Shown: in pieces, positions 4,654-44,000 of the stretch
How the letters are laid out: the number at the start of each line of letters is the position of its first letter
Position numbering within the stretch: position 1 is the first letter of the stretch
Origin: Botryllus schlosseri
Taxonomy: Eukaryota
Reading direction: 5' to 3'
Length of the DNA stretch: 64,000 bases
Assembly: GCA_051294905.1 (NCBI GenBank)
Contig: CM119371.1
Location: forward strand, 37,884,001 to 37,948,000
The notes under the pieces: generated by a model
Seen by the model: only the letters and a program-made list of their open reading frames with translations
Databases searched by the model: none
What the model was told of the DNA's origin: nothing
Position numbers and translations under genes: made by a program

Positions 4654-5311
4654 ATTTATAGTTAACCATTCGTCATACTTTATTATGCCCCCATAGTCAG
4701 TTGTCAACAGCACACCGAAATTTGTTTTTGATTCGCCTCCTCGATTTGCGAGTAACTCATTATTCACATATATAACTGGCAAAGGTTTATGCGTATAGGG
4801 ACGTTTACATAGACAAGATTACATGATCCTTGTTGCATTGGAGTTTGTACCCGATTATTCCATTACAATTTAATACATTGTCTGCTTTCAAAGTATCCTT
4901 CTTTTTTCTTTCATCTCTTTCTCCTTTTCTCTCTGCTGGTTACGTGCCTGCGTACTGTCATCCGATGAGCCAGGGGTTGCCTAATACGTTTTTGCATTAT
5001 GATGTCTTTGAGTGAATATTTTTAAAACTATTGACAGAGACTGGAACAATGATTATGGATTGCTCCATGTTATTTGACTATATATCAACTTTTGCGATCA
5101 TTATTGCTCGCTCTTTTATGTTGGCCTAATATACTGTTTCTTTTAATTCACTGTACATGTTCTTTAGGCCAAGGGTGGGCAAACTTCGGTTGCACATGCG
5201 TTTCGCCATTTTGCTAGGGAGGTTTAACCTTATTATAAATTGTTGCATTTAATCGTGTAATAGCTTAGCAATATGTGTGTTGTTTCTTTCCTTATTATGG
5301 TTTACGCAAGA

Positions 5312-6481: not shown

Positions 6482-7704
6482 GTTTACGCAAGACTTGTAA
6501 AGTTTACTGGAAGGTGGCACAACAGGGTTAAAAATTTGCAATTGAACTCTTGAATCCAGTTCACATAACCATTTCACCCGCAACAATATATATCACTGGT
6601 CATCAATCAATGATGAATCATTGTGTTCAACAATGAACTTGATAATTAACTGCGCCAACAAAGGTCACAATCATTTCCGGGCTAGCAATGGTGAATACGG
6701 CATTATTATTTGTATTGTAAAGACTAGCAATAACTGCAGAGTTTGGCCAAGAAAATCGCGTCGAGATACCGAGCTGAAGTCTACCTTAGATTCTCATCAG
6801 CACTTGAAGCAACTGCTCCGCACTGCTTAAACGTCGCATCAGCCTGATTTCAAGCACCTTGCAGCCCATGCAGGTGGAGACGCAGTGTATCACCACACAA
6901 TAATATACTTCATTTGATAGCCTACATTTTATTGCTACTTTGTAAATTGGTATTTTTGAATTATCGTGTTGTGGCTCTATTAAAACTGAAATTTTTCGCG
7001 CATGAAGCAGGTCTGCCCACCCTGTTCTAGGCCAAGGTGTGGTATTGATTGTAAGACGAGTCCTAGTCGTTTCTACACCCTCCTATCTTTTCATTATATC
7101 AAAGTTTGTAGTTATTAAAAATGATGACATCAATAATAAACTGAATTGACTATACTTTGCCGGATAGTCCAATACCCTATGTTTAATGGTTAAGTATTTG
7201 TGAACCACCGCCCCGGCATGTTTTTTATGGCTTTCAAGCGTTGGGTCATTGGTTATCTCAATCATCAATTCTGCCATGCAAAAATGATTAGAGTAGTACT
7301 GCACTCTGCGTCATGTGTTCATTCTGATGATTTGAGGCGATTAGTGGGGAATGATTCTTTTGAGTAGCGGTAATGAAATTATGCCCTTCTTGCCACCAAG
7401 ACCTAATTTATCAACAAAAATTATACATTCAATAGTATTTACCACTGTGGGAGCCTTGAAGCCTCGATTGCTACGCACCTTGGTGGAAATGACACAGGCC
7501 TACTCGTGAAGTCGTGATCTGATCAACCTGTTGCATTGTCAAAATAGGCATGGTCAAAAAGATGTGAAATTATCTTCAATGTGATGTAGTTCCGCAGTAG
7601 CCATTGGGTATTTCAAACATCAATCCTGCGATCCAATCGTGGCAACTGATTCTCTAGCCCATTTCTTCCAAGTTTTTTCCAGATATAGGCACAATGTAGA
7701 ACTA

Positions 7705-8655
7705 ATGGCCGCGGAGCCTCGAAATTCACCGCGATATTGCCAAAGTTCACCTCTGCTAACGGAGACGCACTCGGATCTAAAAGACAGAATCAATTCTTTT
7801 GACGAGTCGTCCGACTGCAAGAACGACAATGCGCATTTTTTCTGCGGCGCCGGATCATCCGCCATCAACATCGTCCTCACGTTCCCCGTGAACAAAGTCA
7901 TGTTTCGCCAGCAATTGTTCGGATTCCGGATCCAAAAGGCAATTCAGCAGATGAGGCGCGAAGGCTTCATTCGACTATACCGCGGATTACCTGCTCCTCT
8001 TCTACAAAAATCATTGTCTACTTCGCTAATGTTTGGATTATATCATAAAAGCCATCATGTGCTGAGATATGAGTGGAGATGGAATAATACTATTGCGACG
8101 TTGAGTGCTTCTGTATTTGCTGGCACTTGTGAAGCCGTTTTAACTCCCTTCGAACGGGTGCAAGTGCTGTTACTAACCCCGAAGCACCACGGTACATTTA
8201 AAAGTACATACCACACATTGACCACATTGCACTGTTACAACTCCGGCGTGAAAGAATATTACCGCGGTCTGAGCGCGATATTAATCCGAAACGGATTTTC
8301 AAACGCCATATTTTTCGGTCTCAGAAAACCTATCAAACAACTGCTTCCAAAAGCAGACCAAGGTACCGTTAAAAATTCAGTGAACGACTTCATCAGTGGT
8401 GCCGTTATTGGCGCCATTTGCAGTACGCTGTTTTATCCTATCAATGTAATAAAGACTAGGATGCAATCTAATGTTGGCGGAGAATTTTTGTCTTTGAAGC
8501 AAACTTATATTTTGATATATAACGAACGCGGGCGAGATTTGAGGAAATTTTTCCGCGGTTGTCACGTCAACATAGCGCGTTCTTTTTTATCGTGGGGCAT
8601 CATTAACGCGTCTTTTGAAATGCTTCTGAAATTTTTTTACAATGTCAAGTCCTGA
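7705..8655 (+). CDS. SLC25A51: Mitochondrial carrier of the SLC25A51/MCART1 type (NAD+ transporter family), coding region in one exon
   Basis: TFPVNKVMFRQQLFG, LYRGLPAPLLQK, LTPFERVQVLL and FYPINVIKTRMQS carrier motifs typical of SLC25A51/52. First in-frame ATG at 7705, about 316 aa. Confidence 0.88.
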   Translation: MAAEPRNSPRYCQSSPLLTETHSDLKDRINSFDESSDCKNDNAHFFCGAGSSAINIVLTFPVNKVMFRQQLFGFRIQKAIQQMRREGFIRLYRGLPAPLLQKSLSTSLMFGLYHKSHHVLRYEWRWNNTIATLSASVFAGTCEAVLTPFERVQVLLLTPKHHGTFKSTYHTLTTLHCYNSGVKEYYRGLSAILIRNGFSNAIFFGLRKPIKQLLPKADQGTVKNSVNDFISGAVIGAICSTLFYPINVIKTRMQSNVGGEFLSLKQTYILIYNERGRDLRKFFRGCHVNIARSFLSWGIINASFEMLLKFFYNVKS

Positions 8656-18884: not shown

Positions 18885-19705
18885 AGTCATGGTAGGGATG
18901 TCCAACTACGAATAAAGCCAAGTATTCTAGGCCTAAATAGGCTAACTGTTGAGTAGAAGTGAAAGTTGTCCAAAAACACGACCACTGGAATAAGTATAGT
19001 ACAAGTATATGCAAAACCCAGTTGAACATTCCTAACGTAGAAATACTTCGTTACTGGCGACCACTGAACAATTTATATATGAATATTACTATATCAATTC
19101 ATTCATACCACAGAATCGACATCGACTGCGATTAGCCAGAAATATTTTTGGACTTGGAGACCCCGTGGTTCAGAACAGTTTACACACTCACGGATTCGCA
19201 TATTATGATTAATTTCGACCGCAATTGATGACAGACTTGGAAAACAGGAGAATTCCGGAGCTAGATGTAGGTAATTTAATTCTAATATAGTTTATGAAAT
19301 GTTTCTATGCTCCCGTTTTCATTCTAATCTATTTACTGATTATCCTTACTCCTAATCTTACAAGAGAACTGTATGGGGCGGAAAGAGCCAAGCTCGGCGT
19401 ACATATGAGTAGTGTATGTAGGCCGATTATAGCCACCAATGAGATTACGCCACGTGTCCAGCCACGCCCACTTTCAAATTTAAATATTACCGCGCATTTT
19501 TTCAATTTTTTTTTCGGTTACTTGCCGAGAATTGAACCGAGGACCTCGCGACTCGGAAATATTACCGCGTATTTTTTTTTCTTACCCGAATTACCGCGTA
19601 TATTTTTATTTAATTTTTTTTTTATTTTTTTTACTCGAATTTCAGTGGATTATAAGAACGAATCCTTGCAGAGATATGAACCGAGGACCTCAGGACTCAG
19701 ATATG

Positions 19706-19785
19706 AAAACGCGCCTTCTCCTGGAATCGAACCGAGACCCTCATGTCTTATAGACCAGAACTGTAACCATTACACTATCGCGCTC
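19706..19785 (-). ncRNA. tRNA-like RNA polymerase III unit (left-arm copy)
   Basis: Mirror of 34427-34506. Confidence 0.5.
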
Positions 19786-19901
19786 GTTGAGAACATCCGT
19801 CTGTATTGAAGGTTTTAAAAAAGGTTGTCTAATAAGACGCAAACATTGAAAACGCATTTATTATTGTCGCCACAATCACCATTTATTTTCCGGGATATCC
19901 A

Positions 19902-20177
19902 CATGATAATATTCCCTATAATGTTTGTCATCGGAGGCGGTAAATGGCTCCGATTTAATTTCCGGCCTCAAGAAAACCGCGAGGCCACCGATTTCATTGT
20001 TCACGACTGGACGAATTTCCGCAATCCTCTCGGGCGATAACATGATAATGGTCCCTATAATGTTGCTCATCGGAGGCTGTAAATGGCTCCGATTTAAATT
20101 GTGTCGTCAAGAAAACCGCGAGACCACCGACTTCTTTACCCACGACTGGACGAATTTCCGCAATCCTCTCGGGCGAT
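19902..20177. repeat. Two-copy 139-bp tandem repeat in the left arm (mirror 34035-34310)
   Basis: catgataat...cctctcgggcgat begins at 19902 and again at 20041. Confidence 0.9.
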
Positions 20178-22840
20178 CTGCGTGATTCGTAATTCTCCAA
20201 ATAGGCTTCCAGTAGCTCATCATCATCGGATACAGGTTCGGTTTTGATTTTTACCGTGGAAAAAATTAAATCAGAGATGGCTACCGTACGCTTCCTAGCC
20301 CGCGCTCTCAATTGCAAGGCGAGGAGACGAGTGTACCATTAACATTATAGACGTACAACGAGCGATCAATGATAAGTGGCTCTGTATATCATGAGCAATA
20401 ATAAACGACGAGTGTGCCATCAACAATATAGACGCACAAACGAGCATATTTAACTAGCATTGATGCTATATCGATATGGCGCAGTATGTATAGCTGCATG
20501 CTAACCAATTCACATTTAACAATGCGACCCGCGTACAATTATGTAGCCCGATTTTCGTTGAATATTGACAACCCCAACAAATCGAATGAGCTCTTTTCCG
20601 TAGACATCTATAACACAGCTGTCAGTTCAATGGACACGAACTTGAGATTCCGTAGGGTTAAATTCCAAATCAAATAAGACCAGAGTGACTTATCTCTCTT
20701 TCAGGATTTGGACTGATGCGTCCGGCCTATGTCGCAACACTACAATATGTGGCAACACAAACCTATGTATACGTACAGTTGTTATTTGTAGTGTCATCGT
20801 CGCCCGCTGATGCGATAAACTCCCAACAGCTGACACATTCGGCTTCAATCTGATACCAGCATAATTTTTGTAGGTCGAGAATAAGGGTCTCAGGTAATTT
20901 AATTGCAACTAAAATGCCTGCGGCGGCTAATTCTGAGCTTGTTTTGGCTCGGGGGTCGGATGCAACATATGAATCCATTGGCATGGCGCACTATAGCCAA
21001 TTTAGGATGATGAGCCAAAACGCGTAGGCGAGAGAATGGAGATAATAACTAGCCTATATATTTAGAACAAATCAAGTATTGATTTCATGATAACGTATTC
21101 GTTATAACGTCATAAACATTTAGCGAGTTGTATAAGCTGCTTATCCTCAATAACCAATTTGTGGAAATTAGTGAAGAAGTGGATTGTATAGATTCTTAGA
21201 ACAGCACGAGAGTCTGGTTATAGATTTGCTGATGGTACCTGCTGACAGCATCATAACCACGCGACCTTTACTTACCCGTCAGCTAATGTCTTACTATGTA
21301 AAACATGCTTTCTGCACGTTCTTCCGTGAAGACGAACGTAATTTACTGATGTCCTAAATATTAAATTAATTCGGTTACTCTATGTGGCAGCTCATAATTT
21401 GAAATCAGCAAAGACTTCATTACATTACAAGTCTTACATTTTACGTTACTTCTTGATCGTTTCTTTACTGCAAAAAGCGTTTATATTCAACTCGTCGCAT
21501 TTTAGATTGCTTCGAGTCGTGGCGGTAGTTATGAATAAGTTAATATTGTGCCTACTGTCCAGTGCACCTATAGATGCAGAATGTACTTAACACGCGCATG
21601 GATCGCTTATTCCAAATAAATCGCTTAAAGTAACAAACGTGCTGGAGTTGTCAATCTAAAATCATATTCATGATACGAAATAAGTCATTGCCATTTTGAA
21701 TTTATGATATTTTTATAAACGACCTTTAAAAATGCGCGGGCCCCGAAGTCAGGTTATTGCACCAGCAATAAAAAAGTAACATTGTAAGTTTAATCAGGTC
21801 GATAAAATATTATATATTTTTTGTTACATTTCTTCCATATCTGCAAATATATCTTGATGCTATCGTGAGCCACTAAAATGTTGTCCGCATGCGATCCGAT
21901 AACCGTAGTTTGCTCATCCCTGGTTTTAATCATAATCTTTCAAGTAAGTTCTGTTGGTAGGCAAGCCCTACCAGGGTATATTTTGATAAATGCGGGAGTA
22001 AATCGTTATCGAGCCCCTTTCGTTAGCAACTTCTTCAGTAACACAAAATGGGTGACCAATCGCGGCCTCTCGAAATAAATGAACAGCATGCAATATGAAC
22101 AGGACATGAAGCTACGATGTCCGATAATTCCTTTCAATTAAAGTAGAAGTATAGCTATTTCCGACCGAGTAAAACGTTACTCGACATCGTGCTGTTGATA
22201 GTAGTGAGAAATGACATTCGTTTACTTTCGATAATATCCAACATACGGGCTCATGTCGGGGGCAATTTTTAGAACTCTAATATCGCATAGCCCAACTTTG
22301 CAATATTTGTCGATTTATTTAGTCATGTTTTCCTTGCAATAGCCATTCAGCATCGCGAAAATTCATAGTAGAATTTAGAATAAACTGCTACCGTTCATCA
22401 AGGTCGTTGAAAAGTACTTTTCAACGTTTAACTATCATGACATAGTAAACTTCTACTCAAGTACGAGAAGTAGCGATTGTAAGATGATTAGAAAATAAGT
22501 ATTACGGACGCAGTTTTGCCTAAAACCTAAATCACAACACGTTATCTGATCCCTTCCGAATGGCGAGATTAAATATCCCTGAAAAATGAATATTATTCAT
22601 AATATTCACATTGCTATACAAGAAATTTGCCCTGACATTGGCCATAGTGACCATTTAGAATTGGATAGTCAAGGAGTCGAAATTTCTTCGATGCGCATAG
22701 TGCACTAATTCGAGTGCTGAAATCCAATCGACTATATTTGTTATAATGATTCGAGTCGGGTAGTAAAATTTAATTAGCCAGCACTGAAATTACAGCAATA
22801 TAGTTTTACGACCGATGCGAAATTTGGTAGCCATTTCCAG

Positions 22841-23290
22841 GAATAGTAATCAATCCGAAACATTATGATAAATAGATAAGGTTGAAGAAATATAAAAATA
22901 TCATCAATGGTGTATGTATTATGAAACTGGAAATATTGTATTTGCGGTAGCCCGCGATTAGTTTCCAATTCGTAATTTCAACCGCATCGGCAGTTTTTTC
23001 ATCAAAATAAATAAACAAATACTTTGATGCTAATTTCAAAATAGCGTAAATCTCTTAATGAATTTCCCTTGAATAGTAATTAATCCGAAACATTATCATG
23101 CAAGGTCTAAGAAACATAAAAATATCATTAATGTGGTATGTATTGTGAAACAGGCAATATTTTCTTTGCGGTGATCAGAGAATATGTTCTAATTCGTAAT
23201 TTCAACCCCATCACCAGTGTCTCATAATAATGAATTAGCAAATCCTTCGATCCTAATTTTCAAAGTAGCTTAGCTTAGATCTCTGAATGA
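22841..23290. repeat. Diverged ~230-bp tandem duplication directly upstream of the Bcl-2-like gene (mirror 30922-31371)
   Basis: gaatagtaat(c/t)aatccgaaacattat at 22841 and 23071, with shared aattcgtaatttcaacc downstream. Confidence 0.75.
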
Positions 23291-23317
23291 CCTCTGACTC
23301 CCTGTTATCTTCAAACC

Positions 23318-24200
23318 ATGGAATTATTAGGAGTATCACCATCGGTCACTGAAGAAAAGGATGAAATTACATCCGGGGCATATTCCTTGGCCAGGAATTT
23401 TATCATGTACGAACTAGACTGGCCAAGCGTTAAAGCAAATACGAATGCGGAGACAACCTTACGGCGAGTTGGTGATGAAATGTTCGAGCGACATCGAACT
23501 GTCGTAAATGCAATCTCTAAACGTCTCCGATACAGTATTGTCGAAGTCGATGAAAAATATGAAAAATATTCTGCGGATGAGCGGATGTTTCTGATAATAG
23601 CTGATGAAATTTTTAAAGATACTCAAGAAAATTGGGGTCGTATTGTATCTCTGTTTGTGCTGGGTAGCATTCTTGCTCGCAAAAACGAGGAAGAGCATCA
23701 CGGTGATAATATAGAAGATATCATACAGTCAGTCGGGAATTACATCGGTAGAAGAAGACGAAAGTGGATAGGGGAAAATGGAGGATGGGTAAGCGATTTT
23801 ACATGCCCTGATAAGGACTTGGGAATTATCGTTTAGCTTGAGGTACTGTGTATCTGCTCTCGAGAGCCCATACCATCTATCGATAATGAAACTTAGCTTG
23901 CACTTCACAATTCGGTTTTCAATTCAAATTTTGTCATAAGGCACAGAAATTTACAGACCAAGCGCCCCGAGCTTTGAATTACCTAGCAAGTACGGTGACT
24001 TTCCTCTGCAAGATTAGGAACGCTTACATTTTTTTTGTTTGTTTCAGGACAGTTTTGTAGGATTTTTTGATAACGCAGCTCTCGATGATAGTAAAGTTTG
24101 GAAGAGGCTCATGTTTGTCGGAATTGGACTGACGTCTATTGCAATGGCAATAACAAGATCATGGATACTCCTTTGCCATACATCATGTAATAATTTTTAA
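23318..24200 (+). CDS. Bcl-2 family protein (multi-BH, likely pro-survival), exons 23318-23788 and 24048-24200, 207 aa
   Basis: BH3 TLRRVGDEM, BH1 NWGRIVSLFVLG, BH2 WIGENGGW|DSFV. GT-AG phase-0 intron 23789-24047 right after GGW, then a hydrophobic C-terminal tail LMFVGIGLTSIAMAI. Confidence 0.92.
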
Positions 24201-24721
24201 ATAATATATTTCTTCGCCGTTTCATTACATCAATTTTCCCTGTAGGACGGATGCAGTTTCTTCTGAGATTACATGAAAGATTGATCCATAAAACCGTCTT
24301 TATCTGGAACATTTCTATTCTTCAAATTTATCCAGCTACGTAAGGGAATTGTTAGGTTACCTAGAAAACGCCGCAGGTCATATTTGACCCAATTCCGATC
24401 ATAGTAGCGACAGGGAGTTATGACAGCTCAAAATTATCCATCTTTCGATGCCAAATATCGTTGGTTCTCCACGACCTAATATCGTGTTCTATAAATATTG
24501 TGTATATGGAGCAGATATAAATGTTGCTATTTTGTTGTTATTTACGAAGAATACTTTGCTCAGTAATTAATTTCACGGGGATTCTAAACCTCAATACATA
24601 CAAGAGAGCCAAGTTATATCAACCTGGGTTAACCTGTAGTGTTATGTAATTACCTACAATTTTATCAAGACGTAGCGAACACGATAAGTAATATGAAGTG
24701 AAGGAATAAGGGGGCCAAATT

Positions 24722-25981
24722 TCAATGTATAGATGCATATTTATGCGGGAATATCGTCCTACTGGACGAATGCAATTGTTTCCTTAAAGTTTTCCTGTCT
24801 ACGCCATTTAAGCGCGGTAAGATCAGTTTGAGTTGGCGACATTCAGGATGATATTTCACGAAGCTCTGAATGGTAGTCACATATTACCCGTGGATTCTTG
24901 TTCTATCGCTGTCACTGAGGTCGAATACCTTTAGCTGTTCATTGAATAATTGATTATTAGGCGGTTTAGATCAATTTCATAAACGAAATTTGAACTACAT
25001 TGCTTTATTGAGAACCATGAGAGAGCAGGAAATAACTTACTGTAGTGCATCGCTTCCCCATCTCTTCGGTAAGATTCCTGATTTGCAATGAAGCATCTTG
25101 CAATTACTCAGGTTGAATTCTTCAACGCGGGTTTTATGCAGGATATCAGTTGCTGTTTTGTAGCAGGAGGAAATGTCAGGATTTCTACTCAAATCCAGCG
25201 TATGCAGCTTAAACACAGTGTGATGTTCAAATATTTTACGACGCTACAAACCACTCAGTTGCTGTAACAATGATATTTATAGACGACAGAGCAATAATAT
25301 CAATTTCTGCGCCTCATCGCAAAACTGGTGTAATACAGAAATTGATGAACGTCGATAGGATTTGAAGAAACTGCCAAAACTACCATTAATATGAATGAGC
25401 GATAGAAAACCTTCCGCTCATAAGCAATATGACACTTTTTATCAGCAGATGTGATCACGAATGCCTTATTGATGGTAAATTCGCTCGCTAAATGAAATGC
25501 TATGCCTGACCTTGATAGGAATTCATATTAGTAGTACACTATGCTTGATTATTTAACTTGCAAGAAAACAAAACAGATCTAGCTAAAATGGATCACCTCA
25601 TGATTTCCGAGACCGTTATTCAACGAAGTTAATGACTGTTCATCCAATTCGCAAGCTGAAAGTCGAACTGCCTTCGTGTTATGCCTTTTCGCGAAGCGTT
25701 CGATTTCTTGCAATCCTATCGGTTCCAAATCCGTATTGTAACTTAGATCGAGTTTATCAACCTACAAAATACAGCAAATTATTCTGAACACGACACACAA
25801 AATTGTGGAAACGAGTGGCTACCTCGATTTCACCGAAACATTCAAAAGCACGAATTTCATAGGGTGTAAGGTCGCATCCTTTCATCACAAGGCTAACCGC
25901 TTTGTCTTTAGAAAATAAGGGCGGCAGTGCAGCCATACACTCTTCATTCAGACAATTATAACTGATGTCGAGATATTGGAG
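24722..25981 (-). pseudogene. Multi-exon leucine-rich-repeat (RI/NLR-like) gene remnant, left-arm copy
   Basis: Mirror of 28231-29490. Confidence 0.7.
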
Positions 25982-27088
25982 CTAAACGAATATGGGAAAC
26001 TGACAATTTACGACCATAATTAATCGGCGATGAAGACAAAGATTACAAACTTATAACAGAGAAATGTTGATTAGCCAGTCACGTCATAATAGATTAGCGA
26101 AATGTTCTGAGATTAAAATAGCACTTCCGTGATACCTCTCAAATGGACTCTTTGCAACCAGTCATAAAGAATGTGACTATTGACCACTACTCAACATAAG
26201 GAATTTCAACTTGATCATGATCCATAAGTATTGATTGAGGGTGCATCCTCTTATCACCTGTAGCATATGTGAATTATCGTGAATTCATGATCAGAAAATA
26301 AAATTATTATTCATTCTAATCAACATCCAATGTGATTTTTGTGTTGGACTATTTCAATATTTCGATAAGTCGGATAAAATGGTGATACGTGACATATATA
26401 CTCAAGCAAAAAAACTGCTCCATTACCAACACCACCGCGTATATGCCAATAACATAAGACTAAATCATGCTAGTTTGCAGAGTTTAGTCAACCATTGTAC
26501 AGTTTATGCGCTATGAGAATATCGAGTTAATCCAATTACATCATCATAAAGTTTATCCAAGAGTCAAAACTATATAATTTTCCAGTATTGTATGGACTAA
26601 ATTATTAGAAATAAACATCCAAAATGTTAAAGCTTTGGTTTTTACTTTATAAGAATAATTTTATATACTTTATTATAATCATGGTAGGGTATTTGTAATA
26701 ACGAAGGTGTTCTTTAACAACAAGCTATCTTTAATTTTATCAATAACACAAGCTAATTGATACATTTTGAAATTGACTGTAAGATATTAAGCTAATCGTC
26801 AGAGTCGACGGTGATAAAACTATTTTACTTGAGTAATATTTATCGCTACATAAATATCGTTACGCCTTCGGTGCGATGTAAATAGTTGTCTCGTGCGGCA
26901 TCCGTTGCGTGTCGTCACCCTTCGTACACCGTCGAGGAATAGGCTAGCCGGCTCCGTTGACTTGTGACTATTTGTCGTAGACTTAAGTTGTGATATTGTA
27001 AGTTTTGAGGTTCTAAGATGGGTCCGTTCTGGTAAAAAGGAGTCCGCGAATACAATAAAGAGACAATCCTGAGGATGCCGCCCGCCCC

Positions 27089-27123
27089 GCTCTGGGTTCG
27101 GGGCCAATAATAGGGATTAAATA
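27089..27123. other. 35-bp asymmetric spacer at the palindrome centre
   Basis: gctctgggttcggggccaataatagggattaaata between ...gccgcccgcccc and ggggcgggcggc... Confidence 0.95.
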
Positions 27124-28230
27124 GGGGCGGGCGGCATCCTCAGGATTGTCTCTTTATTGTATTCGCGGACTCCTTTTTACCAGAACGGACCCATCTTAGA
27201 ACCTCAAAACTTACAATATCACAACTTAAGTCTACGACAAATAGTCACAAGTCAACGGAGCCGGCTAGCCTATTCCTCGACGGTGTACGAAGGGTGACGA
27301 CACGCAACGGATGCCGCACGAGACAACTATTTACATCGCACCGAAGGCGTAACGATATTTATGTAGCGATAAATATTACTCAAGTAAAATAGTTTTATCA
27401 CCGTCGACTCTGACGATTAGCTTAATATCTTACAGTCAATTTCAAAATGTATCAATTAGCTTGTGTTATTGATAAAATTAAAGATAGCTTGTTGTTAAAG
27501 AACACCTTCGTTATTACAAATACCCTACCATGATTATAATAAAGTATATAAAATTATTCTTATAAAGTAAAAACCAAAGCTTTAACATTTTGGATGTTTA
27601 TTTCTAATAATTTAGTCCATACAATACTGGAAAATTATATAGTTTTGACTCTTGGATAAACTTTATGATGATGTAATTGGATTAACTCGATATTCTCATA
27701 GCGCATAAACTGTACAATGGTTGACTAAACTCTGCAAACTAGCATGATTTAGTCTTATGTTATTGGCATATACGCGGTGGTGTTGGTAATGGAGCAGTTT
27801 TTTTGCTTGAGTATATATGTCACGTATCACCATTTTATCCGACTTATCGAAATATTGAAATAGTCCAACACAAAAATCACATTGGATGTTGATTAGAATG
27901 AATAATAATTTTATTTTCTGATCATGAATTCACGATAATTCACATATGCTACAGGTGATAAGAGGATGCACCCTCAATCAATACTTATGGATCATGATCA
28001 AGTTGAAATTCCTTATGTTGAGTAGTGGTCAATAGTCACATTCTTTATGACTGGTTGCAAAGAGTCCATTTGAGAGGTATCACGGAAGTGCTATTTTAAT
28101 CTCAGAACATTTCGCTAATCTATTATGACGTGACTGGCTAATCAACATTTCTCTGTTATAAGTTTGTAATCTTTGTCTTCATCGCCGATTAATTATGGTC
28201 GTAAATTGTCAGTTTCCCATATTCGTTTAG

Positions 28231-29490
28231 CTCCAATATCTCGACATCAGTTATAATTGTCTGAATGAAGAGTGTATGGCTGCACTGCCGCCCTTATTTT
28301 CTAAAGACAAAGCGGTTAGCCTTGTGATGAAAGGATGCGACCTTACACCCTATGAAATTCGTGCTTTTGAATGTTTCGGTGAAATCGAGGTAGCCACTCG
28401 TTTCCACAATTTTGTGTGTCGTGTTCAGAATAATTTGCTGTATTTTGTAGGTTGATAAACTCGATCTAAGTTACAATACGGATTTGGAACCGATAGGATT
28501 GCAAGAAATCGAACGCTTCGCGAAAAGGCATAACACGAAGGCAGTTCGACTTTCAGCTTGCGAATTGGATGAACAGTCATTAACTTCGTTGAATAACGGT
28601 CTCGGAAATCATGAGGTGATCCATTTTAGCTAGATCTGTTTTGTTTTCTTGCAAGTTAAATAATCAAGCATAGTGTACTACTAATATGAATTCCTATCAA
28701 GGTCAGGCATAGCATTTCATTTAGCGAGCGAATTTACCATCAATAAGGCATTCGTGATCACGTCTGCTGATAAAAAGTGTCATATTGCTTATGAGCGGAA
28801 GGTTTTCTATCGCTCATTCATATTAATGGTAGTTTTGGCAGTTTCTTCAAATCCTATCGACGTTCATCAATTTCTGTATTACACCAGTTTTGCGATGAGG
28901 CGCAGAAATTGATATTATTGCTCTGTCGTCTATAAATATCATTGTTACAGCAACTGAGTGGTTTGTAGCGTCGTAAAATATTTGAACATCACACTGTGTT
29001 TAAGCTGCATACGCTGGATTTGAGTAGAAATCCTGACATTTCCTCCTGCTACAAAACAGCAACTGATATCCTGCATAAAACCCGCGTTGAAGAATTCAAC
29101 CTGAGTAATTGCAAGATGCTTCATTGCAAATCAGGAATCTTACCGAAGAGATGGGGAAGCGATGCACTACAGTAAGTTATTTCCTGCTCTCTCATGGTTC
29201 TCAATAAAGCAATGTAGTTCAAATTTCGTTTATGAAATTGATCTAAACCGCCTAATAATCAATTATTCAATGAACAGCTAAAGGTATTCGACCTCAGTGA
29301 CAGCGATAGAACAAGAATCCACGGGTAATATGTGACTACCATTCAGAGCTTCGTGAAATATCATCCTGAATGTTGCCAACTCAAACTGATCTTACCGCGC
29401 TTAAATGGCGTAGACAGGAAAACTTTAAGGAAACAATTGCATTCGTCCAGTAGGACGATATTCCCGCATAAATATGCATCTATACATTGA
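28231..29490 (+). pseudogene. Multi-exon leucine-rich-repeat (RI/NLR-like) gene remnant, right-arm copy
   Basis: AG/GT-bounded exons 28231-28389 (LQYLDISYNCL...LVMKGCDL), 28451-28615 (VDKLDLSYNTDL...VRLSACEL), 29005-29171 (LHTLDLSRNPDI...FNLSNCKM, 167 bp, apparent frameshift) and 29278-29490 (LKVFDLSD..., in-frame TAA at 29326). Confidence 0.7.
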
Positions 29491-30011
29491 AATTTGGCCC
29501 CCTTATTCCTTCACTTCATATTACTTATCGTGTTCGCTACGTCTTGATAAAATTGTAGGTAATTACATAACACTACAGGTTAACCCAGGTTGATATAACT
29601 TGGCTCTCTTGTATGTATTGAGGTTTAGAATCCCCGTGAAATTAATTACTGAGCAAAGTATTCTTCGTAAATAACAACAAAATAGCAACATTTATATCTG
29701 CTCCATATACACAATATTTATAGAACACGATATTAGGTCGTGGAGAACCAACGATATTTGGCATCGAAAGATGGATAATTTTGAGCTGTCATAACTCCCT
29801 GTCGCTACTATGATCGGAATTGGGTCAAATATGACCTGCGGCGTTTTCTAGGTAACCTAACAATTCCCTTACGTAGCTGGATAAATTTGAAGAATAGAAA
29901 TGTTCCAGATAAAGACGGTTTTATGGATCAATCTTTCATGTAATCTCAGAAGAAACTGCATCCGTCCTACAGGGAAAATTGATGTAATGAAACGGCGAAG
30001 AAATATATTAT

Positions 30012-30894
30012 TTAAAAATTATTACATGATGTATGGCAAAGGAGTATCCATGATCTTGTTATTGCCATTGCAATAGACGTCAGTCCAATTCCGACAAACA
30101 TGAGCCTCTTCCAAACTTTACTATCATCGAGAGCTGCGTTATCAAAAAATCCTACAAAACTGTCCTGAAACAAACAAAAAAAATGTAAGCGTTCCTAATC
30201 TTGCAGAGGAAAGTCACCGTACTTGCTAGGTAATTCAAAGCTCGGGGCGCTTGGTCTGTAAATTTCTGTGCCTTATGACAAAATTTGAATTGAAAACCGA
30301 ATTGTGAAGTGCAAGCTAAGTTTCATTATCGATAGATGGTATGGGCTCTCGAGAGCAGATACACAGTACCTCAAGCTAAACGATAATTCCCAAGTCCTTA
30401 TCAGGGCATGTAAAATCGCTTACCCATCCTCCATTTTCCCCTATCCACTTTCGTCTTCTTCTACCGATGTAATTCCCGACTGACTGTATGATATCTTCTA
30501 TATTATCACCGTGATGCTCTTCCTCGTTTTTGCGAGCAAGAATGCTACCCAGCACAAACAGAGATACAATACGACCCCAATTTTCTTGAGTATCTTTAAA
30601 AATTTCATCAGCTATTATCAGAAACATCCGCTCATCCGCAGAATATTTTTCATATTTTTCATCGACTTCGACAATACTGTATCGGAGACGTTTAGAGATT
30701 GCATTTACGACAGTTCGATGTCGCTCGAACATTTCATCACCAACTCGCCGTAAGGTTGTCTCCGCATTCGTATTTGCTTTAACGCTTGGCCAGTCTAGTT
30801 CGTACATGATAAAATTCCTGGCCAAGGAATATGCCCCGGATGTAATTTCATCCTTTTCTTCAGTGACCGATGGTGATACTCCTAATAATTCCAT
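30012..30894 (-). CDS. Bcl-2 family protein, second copy (exons 30894-30424 and 30164-30012)
   Basis: Mirror of 23318-24200. The exon 1 translation is identical in the ORF track. Confidence 0.92.
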
Positions 30895-33800
30895 GGTTTG
30901 AAGATAACAGGGAGTCAGAGGTCATTCAGAGATCTAAGCTAAGCTACTTTGAAAATTAGGATCGAAGGATTTGCTAATTCATTATTATGAGACACTGGTG
31001 ATGGGGTTGAAATTACGAATTAGAACATATTCTCTGATCACCGCAAAGAAAATATTGCCTGTTTCACAATACATACCACATTAATGATATTTTTATGTTT
31101 CTTAGACCTTGCATGATAATGTTTCGGATTAATTACTATTCAAGGGAAATTCATTAAGAGATTTACGCTATTTTGAAATTAGCATCAAAGTATTTGTTTA
31201 TTTATTTTGATGAAAAAACTGCCGATGCGGTTGAAATTACGAATTGGAAACTAATCGCGGGCTACCGCAAATACAATATTTCCAGTTTCATAATACATAC
31301 ACCATTGATGATATTTTTATATTTCTTCAACCTTATCTATTTATCATAATGTTTCGGATTGATTACTATTCCTGGAAATGGCTACCAAATTTCGCATCGG
31401 TCGTAAAACTATATTGCTGTAATTTCAGTGCTGGCTAATTAAATTTTACTACCCGACTCGAATCATTATAACAAATATAGTCGATTGGATTTCAGCACTC
31501 GAATTAGTGCACTATGCGCATCGAAGAAATTTCGACTCCTTGACTATCCAATTCTAAATGGTCACTATGGCCAATGTCAGGGCAAATTTCTTGTATAGCA
31601 ATGTGAATATTATGAATAATATTCATTTTTCAGGGATATTTAATCTCGCCATTCGGAAGGGATCAGATAACGTGTTGTGATTTAGGTTTTAGGCAAAACT
31701 GCGTCCGTAATACTTATTTTCTAATCATCTTACAATCGCTACTTCTCGTACTTGAGTAGAAGTTTACTATGTCATGATAGTTAAACGTTGAAAAGTACTT
31801 TTCAACGACCTTGATGAACGGTAGCAGTTTATTCTAAATTGTACTATGAATTTTCGCGATGCTGAATGGCTATTGCAAGGAAAACATGACTAAATAAATC
31901 GACAAATATTGCAAAGTTGGGCTATGCGATATTAGAGTTCTAAAAATTGCCCCCGACATGAGCCCGTATGTTGGATATTATCGAAAGTAAACGAATGTCA
32001 TTTCTCACTACTATCAACAGCACGATGTCGAGTAACGTTTTACTCGGTCGGAAATAGCTATACTTCTACTTTAATTGAAAGGAATTATCGGACATCGTAG
32101 CTTCATGTCCTGTTCATATTGCATGCTGTTCATTTATTTCGAGAGGCCGCGATTGGTCACCCATTTTGTGTTACTGAAGAAGTTGCTAACGAAAGGGGCT
32201 CGATAACGATTTACTCCCGCATTTATCAAAATATACCCTGGTAGGGCTTGCCTACCAACAGAACTTACTTGAAAGATTATGATTAAAACCAGGGATGAGC
32301 AAACTACGGTTATCGGATCGCATGCGGACAACATTTTAGTGGCTCACGATAGCATCAAGATATATTTGCAGATATGGATGAAATGTAACAAAAAATATAT
32401 AATATTTTATCGACCTGATTAAACTTACAATGTTACTTTTTTATTGCTGGTGCAATAACCTGACTTCGGGGCCCGCGCATTTTTAAAGGTCGTTTATAAA
32501 AATATCATAAATTCAAAATGGCAATGACTTATTTCGTATCATGAATATGATTTTAGATTGACAACTCCAGCACGTTTGTTACTTTAAGCGATTTATTTGG
32601 AATAAGCGATCCATGCGCGTGTTAAGTACATTCTGCATCTATAGGTGCACTGGACAGTAGGCACAATATTAACTTATTCATAACTACCGCCACGACTCGA
32701 AGCAATCTAAAATGCGACGAGTTGAATATAAACGCTTTTTGCAGTAAAGAAACGATCAAGAAGTAACGTAAAATGTAAGACTTGTAATGTAATGAAGTCT
32801 TTGCTGATTTCAAATTATGAGCTGCCACATAGAGTAACCGAATTAATTTAATATTTAGGACATCAGTAAATTACGTTCGTCTTCACGGAAGAACGTGCAG
32901 AAAGCATGTTTTACATAGTAAGACATTAGCTGACGGGTAAGTAAAGGTCGCGTGGTTATGATGCTGTCAGCAGGTACCATCAGCAAATCTATAACCAGAC
33001 TCTCGTGCTGTTCTAAGAATCTATACAATCCACTTCTTCACTAATTTCCACAAATTGGTTATTGAGGATAAGCAGCTTATACAACTCGCTAAATGTTTAT
33101 GACGTTATAACGAATACGTTATCATGAAATCAATACTTGATTTGTTCTAAATATATAGGCTAGTTATTATCTCCATTCTCTCGCCTACGCGTTTTGGCTC
33201 ATCATCCTAAATTGGCTATAGTGCGCCATGCCAATGGATTCATATGTTGCATCCGACCCCCGAGCCAAAACAAGCTCAGAATTAGCCGCCACAGGCATTT
33301 TAGTTGCAATTAAATTACCTGAGACCCTTATTCTCGACCTACAAAAATTATGCTGGTATCAGATTGAAGCCGAATGTGTCAGCTGTTGGGAGTTTATCGC
33401 ATCAGCGGGCGACGATGACACTACAAATAACAACTGTACGTATACATAGGTTTGTGTTGCCACATATTGTAGTGTTGCGACATAGGCCGGACGCATCAGT
33501 CCAAATCCTGAAAGAGAGATAAGTCACTCTGGTCTTATTTGATTTGGAATTTAACCCTACGGAATCTCAAGTTCGTGTCCATTGAACTGACAGCTGTGTT
33601 ATAGATGTCTACGGAAAAGAGCTCATTCGATTTGTTGGGGTTGTCAATATTCAACGAAAATCGGGCTACATAATTGTACGCGGGTCGCATTGTTAAATGT
33701 GAATTGGTTAGCATGCAGCTATACATACTGCGCCATATCGATATAGCATCAATGCTAGTTAAATATGCTCGTTTGTGCGTCTATATTGTTGATGGCACAC

Positions 33801-34426
33801 TCGTCGTTTATTATTGCTCATGATATACAGAGCCACTTATCATTGATCGCTCGTTGTACGTCTATAATGTTAATGGTACACTCGTCTCCTCGCCTTGCAA
33901 TTGAGAGCGCGGGCTAGGAAGCGTACGGTAGCCATCTCTGATTTAATTTTTTCCACGGTAAAAATCAAAACCGAACCTGTATCCGATGATGATGAGCTAC
34001 TGGAAGCCTATTTGGAGAATTACGAATCACGCAGATCGCCCGAGAGGATTGCGGAAATTCGTCCAGTCGTGGGTAAAGAAGTCGGTGGTCTCGCGGTTTT
34101 CTTGACGACACAATTTAAATCGGAGCCATTTACAGCCTCCGATGAGCAACATTATAGGGACCATTATCATGTTATCGCCCGAGAGGATTGCGGAAATTCG
34201 TCCAGTCGTGAACAATGAAATCGGTGGCCTCGCGGTTTTCTTGAGGCCGGAAATTAAATCGGAGCCATTTACCGCCTCCGATGACAAACATTATAGGGAA
34301 TATTATCATGTGGATATCCCGGAAAATAAATGGTGATTGTGGCGACAATAATAAATGCGTTTTCAATGTTTGCGTCTTATTAGACAACCTTTTTTAAAAC
34401 CTTCAATACAGACGGATGTTCTCAAC

Positions 34427-34506
34427 GAGCGCGATAGTGTAATGGTTACAGTTCTGGTCTATAAGACATGAGGGTCTCGGTTCGATTCCAGGAGAAGGCG
34501 CGTTTT
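34427..34506 (+). ncRNA. tRNA-like RNA polymerase III unit (right-arm copy), not a canonical tRNA
   Basis: A box TAGTGTAATGG, B box GGTTCGATTCC and TTTT at 34503-34506. D-arm-like hairpin tgtaa-tgg-ttaca, but poor anticodon and T stems. Confidence 0.5.
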
Positions 34507-35212
34507 CATATCTGAGTCCTGAGGTCCTCGGTTCATATCTCTGCAAGGATTCGTTCTTATAATCCACTGAAATTCGAGTAAAAAAAATAAAAAAAAAATT
34601 AAATAAAAATATACGCGGTAATTCGGGTAAGAAAAAAAAATACGCGGTAATATTTCCGAGTCGCGAGGTCCTCGGTTCAATTCTCGGCAAGTAACCGAAA
34701 AAAAAATTGAAAAAATGCGCGGTAATATTTAAATTTGAAAGTGGGCGTGGCTGGACACGTGGCGTAATCTCATTGGTGGCTATAATCGGCCTACATACAC
34801 TACTCATATGCTTGCCATTCGCACACTGATGAGAATGAACTTTGGTTTGATATTAACTGAACGTGATTTTAGTCGCATTTCTCCATATTGTTCGAAAATG
34901 AATACGATTTCCCATTTTCGCGCAAATCCAGTAATTCCAGCTCTAAATAATCAGGGGAAATGTGTAGCTATATTTCCAATGCTAATCTAATTAGGAAATG
35001 CTGAAACTTTAATAGCTGTCCAGTTCTGCTTAGTGAGGCGCTCTGTTCTCTTTCCATTCGCGTCGATCGCTTGATATTCGGAGGACATTTTCTCTGATTC
35101 GAAGCAAATTCATCGATGTTCTCGATATTGAAGGCGTTCAAATTTCTTCGCACTATCATCGCAGATAGTTTCTGACAGACTCAATCTTTTATGCGGATAT
35201 ATCCACTAATAA

Positions 35213-37954: not shown

Positions 37955-38546
37955 GGTCTGACTATAGATTACTAACCTACGGATAGATACGCAAGTCCCG
38001 TCGTTACGCTCCGGCAAGCAGTTACACTCGTTGCTGAGCAATCTAAAAGCAGCATAATTGGTGGAGTTATGGCTTGCGACCCGAGGGCTGAAATGTAATG
38101 AAACTGGTCTTAATCGAGAGCTGCTGCCGCACTGATTCCGAAAATACAAATTAAAATCTTGTCGGGGATATGGAACCACCTCAAAACATCCCTCAAAATC
38201 TGAAAATCGACATTGTTCCAACAATGGCACCACCGCAACACGATGAACATAACGATGGCCAATTTCGTCAAGCGATCGTTCAGAATAATGGCGACTTCCA
38301 GACTTTGAGGGATGTTTTGACGTGGTTCCATTCCCCTGACAAGATTTCAATTTGTATTCTCAGAATCAGTGCGACAGTAGCTCCCGATTAAGACCAGTTT
38401 CAATAAATTTCACCCGTCGGGTCGCAAGTTATAACACCACCAATTATGCTGCTTTTAGATTGCTCAGCAATAAGTTTAACTGCTTGCCGGAGCGTTGCGA
38501 CGGGACTTGCGTATCTATCCGTAGGTTAGTAATCTATAGTCCGACC
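37955..38546. mobile_element. Fold-back MITE (~260-bp inverted arms)
   Basis: gactatagattactaacctacggatagatacgcaagtcccgtcg and its reverse complement at 38495-38541, with arms paired inwards. Confidence 0.85.
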
Positions 38547-41006: not shown

Positions 41007-44000
41007 TCACAATCTTCTGCGAAACTTCATTTCCGAGTAGCGCAGTGGTCTGTCAGAGTTACCATGCCACCACCAAATTCCTTTAACGCCCGTCTTGTTG
41101 AAGTTTCCATTCAGATTGCTGTCTGCGCATTGGTTTTACCACCAGCCTCCTTCGTGCAAAGAAGCGCAATTCGATAGCAAATGACCATCGTTATCGGCGT
41201 CTTTCATTGAGAATTGTTGATTGTTGTGAGCTGAGAATGAGTCAAGAGTTGCATTCTCGGAGTACATGTATCCGGATACGTGAAGTTTGTAGTTGTCGGA
41301 GCTGGGTCCGATTCGGAAATTGCTGAACAATACGAATTGGCGCGAATGTTCAATAAAGCCTATGCAGGAGAATGCATGGAAATGTGGTTTATGGGATGTT
41401 ATTAATTTTCTGAACGCAACGATGAGATCCCACGTTAAGTTCGTTGCGAAAAACTTTGGTGATAAATTGGCTATTGCTTTTTCGGTGAGATAATGACATC
41501 GTGACGAAACCAAGTCGACACATTTTAGAGCAGACCAGGGTTGTAACCAAGTCACAAGGCTCCGAGTCACAAGTCAATCTCACTTTTATTGTTTTGACTC
41601 GAGTCAAGTCGAGTCATTTCAATTCACCACCGAGTCAAGTCCGAGTCCAAGTCAGCGATTAGAGGGTCGAGTCCGAGTCATGGAATTATGACTCGAGTCC
41701 AAGTCCAAGTCATTGTATAGACTGCTCAGTTTCCAGTTAAAGTCTTGGTAAACCCACTTTTTATAACTCTGTTTGGTGATATCGGATGTTTCGCATTTAT
41801 AATATACCAATTTTCCTCACTTTTAGCAGTTTCTGGTCGCATATTCAAGTACCAGTACCAACAGACGAAATCCCAATGGTGTGTTGGCTTCGGAATTACA
41901 ATGAAATGTCGGTCTTGGCCGTCTGAGTCTCGAGTCAATGACTTGGTTCGAGTCATGCGCAATGACTCGAGTCCAAGTCGAGTCAATACACGAATTGACT
42001 CGAGTCGAGTCGAGTCATTTCCGTATTTTGAAAAAATGACTCGAGTCAAGTCGAGTCATCGGAAAATCGTGACTCGAGTCAGACTCGAGTCGAGTCATGA
42101 CTCGAGTCATTACAACCCTGGAGCAGACCCGGGCAAAGTGCGGCCCGCGGGCCAAATGCGACCCGCGAAACTATTCTGTGCGGCCCGCGAAAGGTTGCTT
42201 GAAATTCAAAACATGAAAACTTGTTTTTTAAATGAATAAAACCATAGGCTGTATCTACTGAACAGGAAATTCGTATAATTTGAAGCCTGTTCATAAATAA
42301 GCCACGATTACGCTGCCTGCGTACCTCACATGCGTAATCCAGATTCAAGATAAAGGCAATGTGGCAAAGTACGAGTAGCAATTAAAGTCACAAGAAATCA
42401 CATTTTCCATATAGTTTAGTTTGAAATTCTTTGTTGCCATTGTCACATTACGCATTATACGGTATGTGTTTCAATTTGTTACGTGTGATACGTTTCCAAA
42501 GCCCTAATTCGTAAATCAAGTGAATCAGTGCTCGCGATTACTATATGACTCATCATATTTATCACCCATAAAGGATCACCGGACATGCCAAAAAAGAATG
42601 CTGCCAACTAAAATTCAAAAAAGGTTTAGACCGGGGGTTGGCAACCCCCCTCATTTTATTTTTTGCCGAGCATGTCGCCGAGATTGAGCATTTTAATTAA
42701 AGTCGGTCTTATGACAAAAACACGAAAAACTCGGTCAAGGGAGGGCGAAGTTCAAAAAAACTGCAAGCTTCGCTCAACATCAAGGCTATAAGCTGCACAC
42801 TGCTCGGAAGGCAGCGACCAAGAAAATGAGCTTTGTACTATTGCACATACATTTCGAACTGCGGGACAGGAAAGCTTAAGAAGAGGGCGCGAAGCCGAAG
42901 TTTATTGAAAAAATTTTTCGCGCTCCGCGCGATTTACACATGCCTTGTAGTTGTGGCTCTGTGTATTGTCCGACATTGATATTTCAGAATTCCTTCATTA
43001 ACTGCTGTAACCTTCCATGCAATCAAACTATCCGTTGGGATTGCTAGCATTCTGGTTGCACTTTTTAATATTTTGTGATATCATGATGAGGACGGCGCGA
43101 ATTTTTTCACTAACATAAAGGCCTAGAAAGTTTGAGAACCACTGTTTTAGAGACTTAATAGAAGAACGTTGATAGGAATTTAAAGAAAGTTAAAATGTAT
43201 CACGTTTAACATTGTTTCGAATCATTTCGGTAAATAGATATTTTCCTAATTAACTGTCACTTTCCCATTACCTAACATCAACATATTTACTTCGCAGCAT
43301 TTATTAACAATGTAATTTAGAAATGAAATGAAATACTCTGGAGAATATAGCTAAGACTTTTCACTTGGCCCGCCAACGTATATTCAAATTCTCATTTGGC
43401 CCGCGGAGAAAAATAATTGCCCATCCCTATTTTAGAGATTACCTAGTTACATCGCATAATGGCATGGAGATTGTTACGTCGATGCTATAAATGCATTTGA
43501 AAACATAAAAGGGCCATTCTAAACTTGAATGATGTGATAAACCGACACAGTTTGAAATCTCATGAAATTTTGTACGTAGGCCTACACAGAGTACTTAGTT
43601 GTACTAAGTTCGAGCAGAATGGACTTTATTTTATGACAATTGCACTTTAGGATCAAAAGTTACTTCGTTTTGAAAATTGACTATCTTCGCTCATTTCAAA
43701 TCTGAGCAGTTCAAGTTTTACCAATTTGACGTAATACTTTCATATTGGTTTTCCCTCCGCCTGTCGTTAATAAACTGTTGGCACTTTATTAATTTTCGTT
43801 CGTCATTTATTCCGCCAATTATCACTACTATCACCAAACTTTTGTATTAATTGATGCATCGAACTACCACTTGCCTGTATTTAGCCACCCAGTGGGTATT
43901 TGTGTCGTTCGTGATCATGTTGATTTCCAATTCCATATTTCCTTCCTTTGTCATTTCGTGCAATTTATCGAGTCCTTGACACAAGCGTTGGGAAATTATC

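Follow-up and report, generated by a model that had tools for sequence, protein, structure and literature searches.

An apparently host-derived Bcl-2-family gene in palindromic mobile elements with Maverick-type ends in Botryllus schlosseri

Replicating DNA elements carrying a captured host survival gene are known among viruses, namely as the Bcl-2 homologues of herpesviruses (vBcl-2/BALF1), African swine fever virus (ASFV; A179L), poxviruses, iridoviruses and adenoviruses (E1B-19K). A comparable arrangement is described here for a 64,000-nucleotide (nt) stretch of the genome of Botryllus schlosseri (GenBank assembly GCA_051294905.1, contig CM119371.1, positions 37,884,001 to 37,948,000 of the forward strand), which as a whole is called the window below: a Bcl-2-family gene lies in both arms of a large palindromic mobile element whose ends are of the Maverick type. 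Unlike the viral homologues, the window protein is far closer to cellular family members (PDB E ~1e-5, template modelling (TM) score ~0.7) than to any viral one, and a probable donor can be identified in the same genome.

Maverick/Polinton transposons were reportedly described by Kapitonov and Jurka in 2006. In a later account, they are recognised by (AGT)2..(ACT)2 or (AG)3..(CT)3 ends together with a 6-bp duplication, and intact vertebrate Mavericks measure 16.9 +/- 1.7 kb with inverted repeats of 46-1,447 bp (Barreat and Katzourakis 2021, PMC8097293). Measured against this description, the window element is Maverick-like in its AGTAGT..ACTACT ends, its 6-bp duplication and the 15-20 kb length of its family, whereas it has no polymerase, integrase, ATPase, protease or capsid gene and its inverted repeats span the whole element. 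Accessory Bcl2 genes have been noted in adintoviruses and Mavericks (Starrett et al. 2021, PMC8502044); like the Maverick resident in the present genome, these are cases of a Bcl-2 homologue on an animal Maverick-type element. Compared with the genes as noted there, the copies in the window differ in lying in a gene-poor palindrome without any virus core gene, in possessing a spliceosomal intron and a putative membrane tail, and in numbering hundreds. The nearest transposon precedent is a BCL-2 motif in giant Gypsy-like planarian retrotransposons (Arkhipova and Yushenova 2019, PMC6431247), where a Bcl-2-like module is likewise part of a large animal transposon. In the planarian case as given there, however, the motif is situated inside a retroelement polyprotein, whereas the window holds a free-standing, spliced-looking gene on a DNA element.

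Two further architectures invite comparison. Foldback transposons such as FB of Drosophila have arms of short tandem repeats, and the target duplication of the FB/Mutator type is about 9 bp long. The window element resembles them in consisting nearly entirely of inverted arms (7,687 nt) with a small 35-nt loop, but it differs in its Maverick/integrase-type ends, its 6-bp duplication and its arms of unique sequence with a selected gene. Among protein-primed linear replicons, the 'hairpin plasmids' derived from yeast killer plasmids and the inverted-duplication genomes of defective adenoviruses are parallels, neither of which turned up in our literature search. In such derivatives one end is copied back and two identical functional ends result, and an origin of this kind would explain both the arm identity and the central loop of the window element. 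They are extrachromosomal laboratory or defective forms, whereas the window form is integrated, abundant and long-lived. Taken singly, Bcl-2 genes of viruses and adintoviruses, ends of the Maverick type and a foldback architecture are all known; new are the probable donor gene, its apparent capture at the DNA level, the copy carried by the Maverick itself, the estimates of selection and the common architecture of the ends. A literature search with subscription journals mostly outside its coverage retrieved no palindromic Maverick derivative, no non-autonomous element keeping a selected Bcl-2 gene and no transposon-borne Bcl-2 expansion in tunicates.

A mobile palindrome with a Bcl-2-family gene in each arm

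The palindrome of the window comprises two arms (19402-27088 and 27124-34810, including the 6-nt target duplications) around a 35-nt spacer, and its features are collected in Table 1. Over 7,687 positions the arms show 5 differences, all of them outside the Bcl-2 gene, and they consist largely of unique sequence apart from one 139-nt tandem doublet near the terminus (19901-20177 and its mirror). A second copy on contig 14, 99.5-99.7% identical, begins and ends at the same bases; homology between the two stops at the palindrome ends and the contig 14 copy has a 6-bp duplication of its own, which identifies the unit 19408-34804 as a mobile-element insertion. Apart from the Bcl-2 frames and one of low complexity at its left margin, it was found to contain no open reading frame (ORF) of at least 120 amino acids (aa), and a Pfam scan of selected element pieces gave no above-threshold family except Bcl-2. 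None of the Maverick core genes for polymerase, integrase, packaging ATPase, protease and capsid was found in 19408-34804 by ORF and Pfam scans. As the element lacks these core genes, only a non-autonomous derivative comes into question, and 19408-34804 is the insertion of a non-autonomous mobile element. An earlier note on this DNA had described the Bcl-2 gene as present twice as cargo. Cargo of a mobile element it is, according to the matching ends and the 6-bp duplication; the two copies do not represent separate cargo events, because the gene sits in each arm of one palindrome.

Table 1. Positions of the element, its parts and its genes within the window
Feature	Position	Strand	Remark
Palindromic non-autonomous mobile element	19408..34804		15,397 bp; contig 14 copy shares both end bases
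Left target-site duplication CATATG	19402..19407		hexamer recurs at 34805-34810
Right target-site duplication CATATG	34805..34810		matches left hexamer
Left terminus	19408..19527	+	AGTAGT; TATA at 21-24, CCAAT at 29-33 (counted from the end)
Right terminus	34685..34804	-	mirror image of left terminus
Left arm	19408..27088	+	palindrome arm
Right arm	27124..34804	-	palindrome arm
Asymmetric spacer	27089..27123		35 nt between GC-rich arm ends
Remnant of host intron 1 3' end	23289..23317	+	aligns to pyrimidine tract and acceptor before host exon 2
Bcl-2 copy 1, exon 1	23318..23788	+	157 aa: BH4-like, BH3, BH1, BH2
Bcl-2 copy 1, intron	23789..24047	+	259 nt, GT..AG, phase 0 after GGW
Bcl-2 copy 1, exon 2	24048..24200	+	50 aa with hydrophobic tail, then stop
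Bcl-2 copy 2, exon 1	30424..30894	-	identical to copy 1
Bcl-2 copy 2, intron	30165..30423	-	by arm mirror symmetry; no arm difference falls inside
Bcl-2 copy 2, exon 2 and stop	30012..30164	-	identical to copy 1
LRR-like pieces, left arm	25037..25981	-	three pieces in different frames
LRR-like pieces, right arm	28231..29175	+	mirror of 25037-25981

The two exons of the gene encode a product of 207 aa. Exon 1 is free of stops in translation, the intron is bounded by GT at 23789-23790 and AG at 24046-24047, and the stop codon is located at 24198-24200; the coding exons of the minus-strand copy match letter for letter. Cellular Bcl-2-family genes have an intron within Bcl-2 homology region 2 (BH2), directly after the GGW tryptophan codon. 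The phase-0 intron that the earlier note had placed after GGW was confirmed, as it is bounded by GT..AG and found in the same place in 23 of 26 copies and in a host gene described below. The description of an intact two-exon gene with BH3, an NWGR-type BH1, BH2 and a hydrophobic tail is likewise upheld by gene model, Pfam and motifs, which agree with each other. The Pfam family Bcl-2 (PF00452) was matched over profile positions 1-100 of 100 with an E of 1.2e-22 and 80.8 bits against a cut-off of 31.4. In the translation we identified a BH4-like helix with NFIMYEL, a BH3-like LRRVGDEM, BH1 as ENWGRIV and BH2 as WIGENGGW, followed in exon 2 by the hydrophobic tail LMFVGIGLTSIAMAI. In an alignment of 59 sequences, W106, G107, R108, W150 and G156 are invariant. 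Exon 2 of most copies, read by eye from the translations, encodes ~17-19 hydrophobic residues and then basic ones, and the tail is 13 aa longer in the subfamily of the window.

By sequence, the nearest proteins of solved structure are Mcl-1, Bcl-2 and BCL2L10 with E about 2e-9, and the BH4-like first helix aligns with that of Bcl-2. An AlphaFold2 model of the exon-1 product alone, computed from a 59-row alignment, showed seven helices with a predicted local distance difference test score (pLDDT) of 84.2 and a predicted TM score (pTM) of 0.80. Searched against the PDB with Foldseek, it gave 281 matches at E <= 0.001, with Bcl-2-family chains throughout among the matches listed. The leading ones are pro-survival proteins (NRZ/BCL2L10, Bcl-2, Bcl-xL, BFL1 and Mcl-1; TM 0.65-0.74), while viral Bcl-2 homologues are weak structural matches (best E 1.4e-3) and 'Bcl2 [Branchiostoma lancelet adintovirus]' occurs at rank 24 of the fold matches, also weakly. 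Family membership, motifs and fold together suggest an anti-apoptotic role of the protein.

The exon-1 product was searched against the 495.5-Mb assembly of the window itself, which yielded 412 candidate matches; 150 of these were scored, and sequence was examined for six complete elements and 26 copies of the gene. All copy counts are lower bounds. The scored matches share 75-100% protein identity, and 141 of the 150 are stop-free. From the match table ~54 Bcl-2 pairs were read off on all large contigs, always with the plus-strand copy first and the genes facing the centre. Their members lie 3-20 kb apart, in one pair 48 kb; both arms have equal scores in 39 of the 54 pairs, and in two pairs an identical stop occurs in both arms. 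Of the 26 copies examined, 23 possess exon 1 and an open exon 2, separated by an intron of 183-263 nt with GT..AG borders; exon 2 was not found by script in two of the remaining three, and the motifs were not found in one. AGTAGT..ACTACT ends were observed in five of five palindromic copies. The 6-bp duplication is perfect in three of these (CATATG in the window, CACATA on contig 14, CCTGAC on contig 4); in the contig 3 copy and a diverged copy at C1:28.03 Mb, only 4 of the 6 bases agree. The first ~100 nt of the terminus recur at either end of many further Bcl-2 loci, where they are 88-96% identical. Element length, measured or taken from paired ends, is 15.3-20.1 kb in 13 of 15 cases, the other two being 28.7 and 55.3 kb. 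The diverged palindrome at C1:28.03 Mb is 15.7 kb long; all that it has in common with the window element is a single block of 95 nt and the Bcl-2 region, which corresponds to window 23238-24633 and shows 72-82% identity.

Transcripts were sought in four RNA runs, of each of which 6-13% was sampled. No reads were obtained from one run and 12-27 from each of the other three, all of them aligning only in part, with 95-99% identity. Reads of run X16 match a 72-nt stretch at 23720-23792 alone, with 95-99% identity, and diverge on both sides; they indicate that a diverged family member is transcribed, reading on past GGW.

Origin of the gene, selection and arm likeness

The nearest named relative of the window protein is 'bcl-2-like protein 2' of Styela clava, with 50% identity. 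The top genome match to this relative is a single locus at C14:19.04 Mb, on contig 14, where no inverted repeat was found, which places it outside a palindrome. The gene at this locus has three exons. Exon 1, which is followed by a GTAAGT donor, encodes a product that resembles the Styela protein N-terminally (45% over 38 aa, E 7e-6), exon 2 spans TKEL to GGW, and a 184-nt intron follows after GGW in the same place as the element intron, before an exon 3 with the hydrophobic tail. We conclude that this host gene is the orthologue of the Styela clava protein. The locus adjoins a Nudix-like gene.

Element and host gene can be aligned over a span that starts ~29 nt ahead of exon 2, extends ~80 nt beyond the stop and includes the pyrimidine tract and the former acceptor of host intron 1. 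Where host exon 2 has AAA as its second codon, the elements have ATG, which has thus newly arisen as their start codon. Judged by this alignment, the element gene evidently goes back to a DNA-level capture of host exons 2-3 with the intervening intron and the tail of intron 1, without exon 1. In a phylogenetic tree obtained by a quick search (LG+G4; outgroup branches are long), the host gene is sister to all element-borne copies with a Shimodaira-Hasegawa-like approximate likelihood ratio (SH-aLRT) of 98. The relatives P0003 and P0004 lie outside this clade, and the Styela protein and P0007 further out. Introns carried along in the alignment and the position in the tree argue for capture from genomic DNA, as the earlier note had proposed, and not for a retrocopy. 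The gene at C14:19.04 Mb is the probable donor. As it is sister to the element copies and located on contig 14, the host's own orthologue is this gene and not the window copy, a question the earlier note had raised. Element copies saturated a PF00452 search of the genome, which brought no other Bcl-2 genes of the host to light. The synonymous divergence (dS) between element copies and donor, 1.07-1.41, is saturated, which indicates that the capture is old.

The copies evolve under purifying selection, and the gene is open in most of them. The median Nei-Gojobori ratio of nonsynonymous to synonymous divergence (dN/dS) is 0.27 for 23 copies (230 of 253 pairs with dS above 0.05). It amounts to 0.12-0.17 against the donor and to 0.21-0.30 between Maverick and palindromic copies; neither the value among copies nor that against the donor, which the earlier note had asked for, is near 1. 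Intron divergence from the window copy reaches up to 0.31 where dN is 0.10-0.14. In four of five non-overlapping deep pairs the ratio of nonsynonymous to synonymous differences per site (pN/pS) is 0.30-0.32 with a binomial p of at most 1.6e-7.

Copies ~4-9% diverged from the window keep arms at least 99.7% alike. Between the window and contig 14 copies, 14 differences are found in both arms of one element, 12 in one contig 14 arm only and 5 in one window arm only. Differences shared by both arms, together with the arm likeness in diverged copies, indicate that the arms become alike during or close to every round of copying and later drift apart.

The resident Maverick and the possible benefit of the gene

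An autonomous relative resides in the same genome. The Maverick at C2:2211650-2229478 is 17,829 bp long, has AGTAGT..ACTACT ends with inverted repeats of 251 nt that are 96% alike, and is flanked by a perfect TACGTA duplication. It codes for an rve integrase with chromodomain and for an A32-type ATPase (E 1.4e-9), and its 443-aa ORF shows a faint double-jelly-roll match (E 0.15). A multi-copy 274-aa ORF was flagged in the genome by weak matches to the poxvirus-A32 ATPase family, and two of these ORFs sit 8.45 kb from a Bcl-2 match, one in this Maverick and one at a second locus on contig 4. The Maverick has its own Bcl-2 ORF, which begins 249 nt from the left end and shares 80% DNA identity with window exon 1; it reads on for nine codons past GGW to a stop, without intron and without tail. 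Maverick and palindromic copies group together with an SH-aLRT of 99, the palindromic copies alone with 53. AGTAGT, TATA at 21-24 and CCAAT at 29-33 are invariant in four palindromic copies and the Maverick ends, and the Bcl-2 region is the only sequence common to both palindromic subfamilies and the Maverick. A gene for a ubiquitin-conjugating enzyme (UQ_con, E 1.6e-47; 908-1378 (+) of the extracted locus) lies ~500 nt downstream of the Maverick Bcl-2 ORF and represents a second host-like accessory gene.

Taken together, these observations are in our view probably best explained by an intact captured Bcl-2 gene within a Maverick-type palindromic transposon, where it has a role like that of viral Bcl-2, while the element borrows Maverick machinery and its arms are remade in each round. 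The captured protein would hold off mitochondrial apoptosis in cells where the Maverick and its palindromic dependants replicate; alternatively, the benefit may consist in a longer life of carrier cells. In either case, lineages keeping the gene would leave more copies. The palindromic elements would borrow the Maverick integrase via the shared AGTAGT/TATA/CCAAT terminus and perhaps also the protein-primed replication and the capsid of the Maverick, which their similar length would fit. The arms may be remade at or near each copying, for example via a snap-back or hairpin intermediate, and if they are made alike every time, the gene would always be present in two copies.

Several observations weigh against this explanation. 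Whether a family member is pro- or anti-apoptotic is unreadable from sequence, and BOK is among the Foldseek PDB matches (rank 24). The Maverick version has neither intron nor putative membrane tail, and the two versions may thus differ in action. For the 1,314-aa ORF of the Maverick, with a single motif-B-like string, no polymerase was recognised by Pfam (E up to 10, noise only) or by PDB sequence search, and the same kinds of search recognised neither a polymerase nor a capsid gene in the Maverick. PF03175 (polymerase B type 2) matched neither this genome nor the control genomes. BLASTN detected no likeness between the ends of palindromes and Maverick beyond AGTAGT, TATA and CCAAT at fixed positions. 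In the tree, the Maverick and three groups of palindromic copies branch off as a polytomy, and transfer between Maverick and palindromic elements may have gone either way. The gene lies 3.9-6 kb from the end in palindromic elements and 249 nt in the Maverick; with this difference, and those in intron and tail, simple copy-back of today's Maverick end does not explain the palindromes. Selection is not uniform either, as the fifth deep pair has a pN/pS of 0.64 (p 0.089) and eight close pairs summed give 0.52 (p 0.007). The relaxed value of the close pairs fits a decay of copies after insertion. Finally, no read joined 23788/24048 in the four RNA runs at the sampled 6-13%, and the earlier note's proposed junction thus found no RNA counterpart there; the reads over 23720-23792 are those of a diverged paralogue and, past GGW, enter sequence unlike the window intron or exon 2.

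A more far-reaching version of the favoured explanation is possible, though we regard it as rather doubtful: the palindromes might be a satellite-like lineage of the Maverick virus, with copy-back genomes that lost all virus genes and, through selection, kept only the host-derived anti-apoptotic gene, in two doses, and that are replicated via a hairpin from which both arms are remade out of one, and packaged and integrated by the helper. The lengths would fit those of a helper, 13 of 15 palindromic copies measuring 15.3-20.1 kb against 17.8 kb for the Maverick. If this were true, a non-autonomous element would pay its way, or compete, by keeping the infected cell alive.

Some of the contrary observations would also suit a gene that is swept along near the end of a parent element without use to it, with intactness merely reflecting youth. 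Any copy-back of the Maverick left end would take along a gene that starts 249 nt in, many copies are young (those of the window and contig 14 being 99.7% alike), the close pairs are relaxed at a pN/pS of 0.52, and splice-joining RNA reads were not found in the sampled runs. However, comparisons as deep as dS 0.4-0.5 give a pN/pS of ~0.3, with p at most 1.6e-7 in four of five pairs, and between subfamilies the rest of the arms is wholly replaced while gene, intron and splice sites persist. We therefore consider a mere passenger unlikely.

Purifying selection by itself is silent on the beneficiary, and the probable donor is a host gene. It is thus conceivable that selection acts on the host, which may be a colonial ascidian whose cells turn over heavily and which would profit from additional doses of a survival gene, the element being only the amplification vehicle. 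This appears improbable to us, since selection on the host could act only very weakly on any one of hundreds of nearly redundant copies, the selection signal is located on deep branches between element subfamilies, i.e. in transposing lineages, and the autonomous Maverick keeps the same gene.

The protein might also not be a survival factor at all, acting instead as a pore-forming, pro-death protein of the Bax/Bak/Bok type or as part of an addiction scheme. BH1-3 plus a tail would fit Bax, Bak and Bok too, a distant relative with 33% identity bears the name BAX-like, and BOK appears among the fold matches. The best matches in sequence and fold are nevertheless pro-survival members, the named orthologue of the donor is a 'bcl-2-like protein 2', and the BH4-like first helix aligns to that of Bcl-2, which makes a pro-death function very improbable. 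Near-perfect palindromes with short spacers are a known artefact of long-read libraries, but a fold-back chimeric read in the assembly, like an ordinary segmental duplication, has a negligible chance of accounting for the same architecture at ~54 loci on all large contigs, with target duplications that differ between copies, arm differences that grow with copy divergence and a spacer conserved among copies.

The persistence of the Bcl-2 gene runs counter to expectation, as non-autonomous transposons should shed coding capacity, and here an apparently host-derived survival gene has stayed intact across a family of hundreds of members without genes for replication or integration. The gene looks spliced and is under purifying selection, while the remainder of the element has been replaced. 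With the probable donor, the autonomous relative and the derivative in one genome, the steps of the capture become traceable, from the apparent DNA-level event to the new start codon and a presumable later loss of intron and tail in the Maverick. The system likewise allows one to trace whether endogenous virus-like elements in animals owe their success to anti-apoptotic genes and how giant palindromic elements keep their arms alike. Body turnover in an ascidian centres on cell death and cell competition, and a mobile survival gene could matter to the host as well.

Neighbouring and minor features

Leucine-rich repeat (LRR)-like pieces accompany the Bcl-2 gene in each arm. Their Pfam LRR_1 matches are sub-threshold (E 0.0033 and 0.036), and a PDB sequence search with the pieces returned one chance match only. 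A 74-aa frame of this region (window 25757-25981 on the minus and 28231-28455 on the plus strand) occurs at 146 places in the genome, mostly open (74-85 aa), as minus/plus pairs inside the Bcl-2 pairs and at some loci outside the scored Bcl-2 matches. Set against a contig 17 copy of 75% identity, three pieces have a pN/pS of 0.52-0.59 (p 0.03-0.08), whereas a fourth has one of 1.27. The region is partly missing in the contig 4 copy and wholly in the diverged subfamily. The decay of a neighbouring LRR gene claimed in the earlier note is accordingly not established, given the mostly open 74-aa piece and the pN/pS of three pieces; they may be fragments or exons of a dispensable, weakly constrained spliced gene.

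At the centre of the palindrome, the spacer of 27089-27123 recurs in the contig 14, contig 4 and contig 3 copies. The diverged subfamily has a 33-nt G/T-rich asymmetric spacer in the corresponding place, also between GC-rich arm ends. The central spacers of these two unrelated-looking subfamilies are accordingly 33-35 nt long, asymmetric and G/T-rich with TAGGG/GGGTT-like strings, and possibly represent a conserved loop or resolution site. Compared by eye with a library adapter sequence, the 35-nt spacer did not fit. The 95-nt block retained in the diverged palindromic subfamily (window 22226-22320, mirror 31892-31986) has 78% identity there and may be a cis-acting site. Just upstream of the Bcl-2 gene, a 117-nt direct repeat is present at 22878-22994 and 23102-23218, spaced 224 nt apart, and in the mirror positions.

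The left flank of the insertion (19100-19401) is a member of one abundant repeat family and the right flank (34811-35110) of another, the two having 887 and 173 candidates in the genome. Matches to these repeats end right at the insertion site; among the 887 and 173 flank candidates no locus joining both flanks, i.e. no empty site, was found. Further inverted-repeat pairs lie outside the element, one with 274-nt arms 11.5 kb apart (41617-41890 and 53434-53707) and short foldback-like pairs at 37955-38546, 57283-57791 and 5308-6457; these probably belong to other transposons. In line with an ascidian host close to Styela, the window also contains a single-exon host gene for an SLC25A51-like mitochondrial carrier at 7585-8655 (+) (Mito_carr, E 2e-33), the ORF of which shares 73% identity with the Styela clava protein and 56% with that of Ciona.

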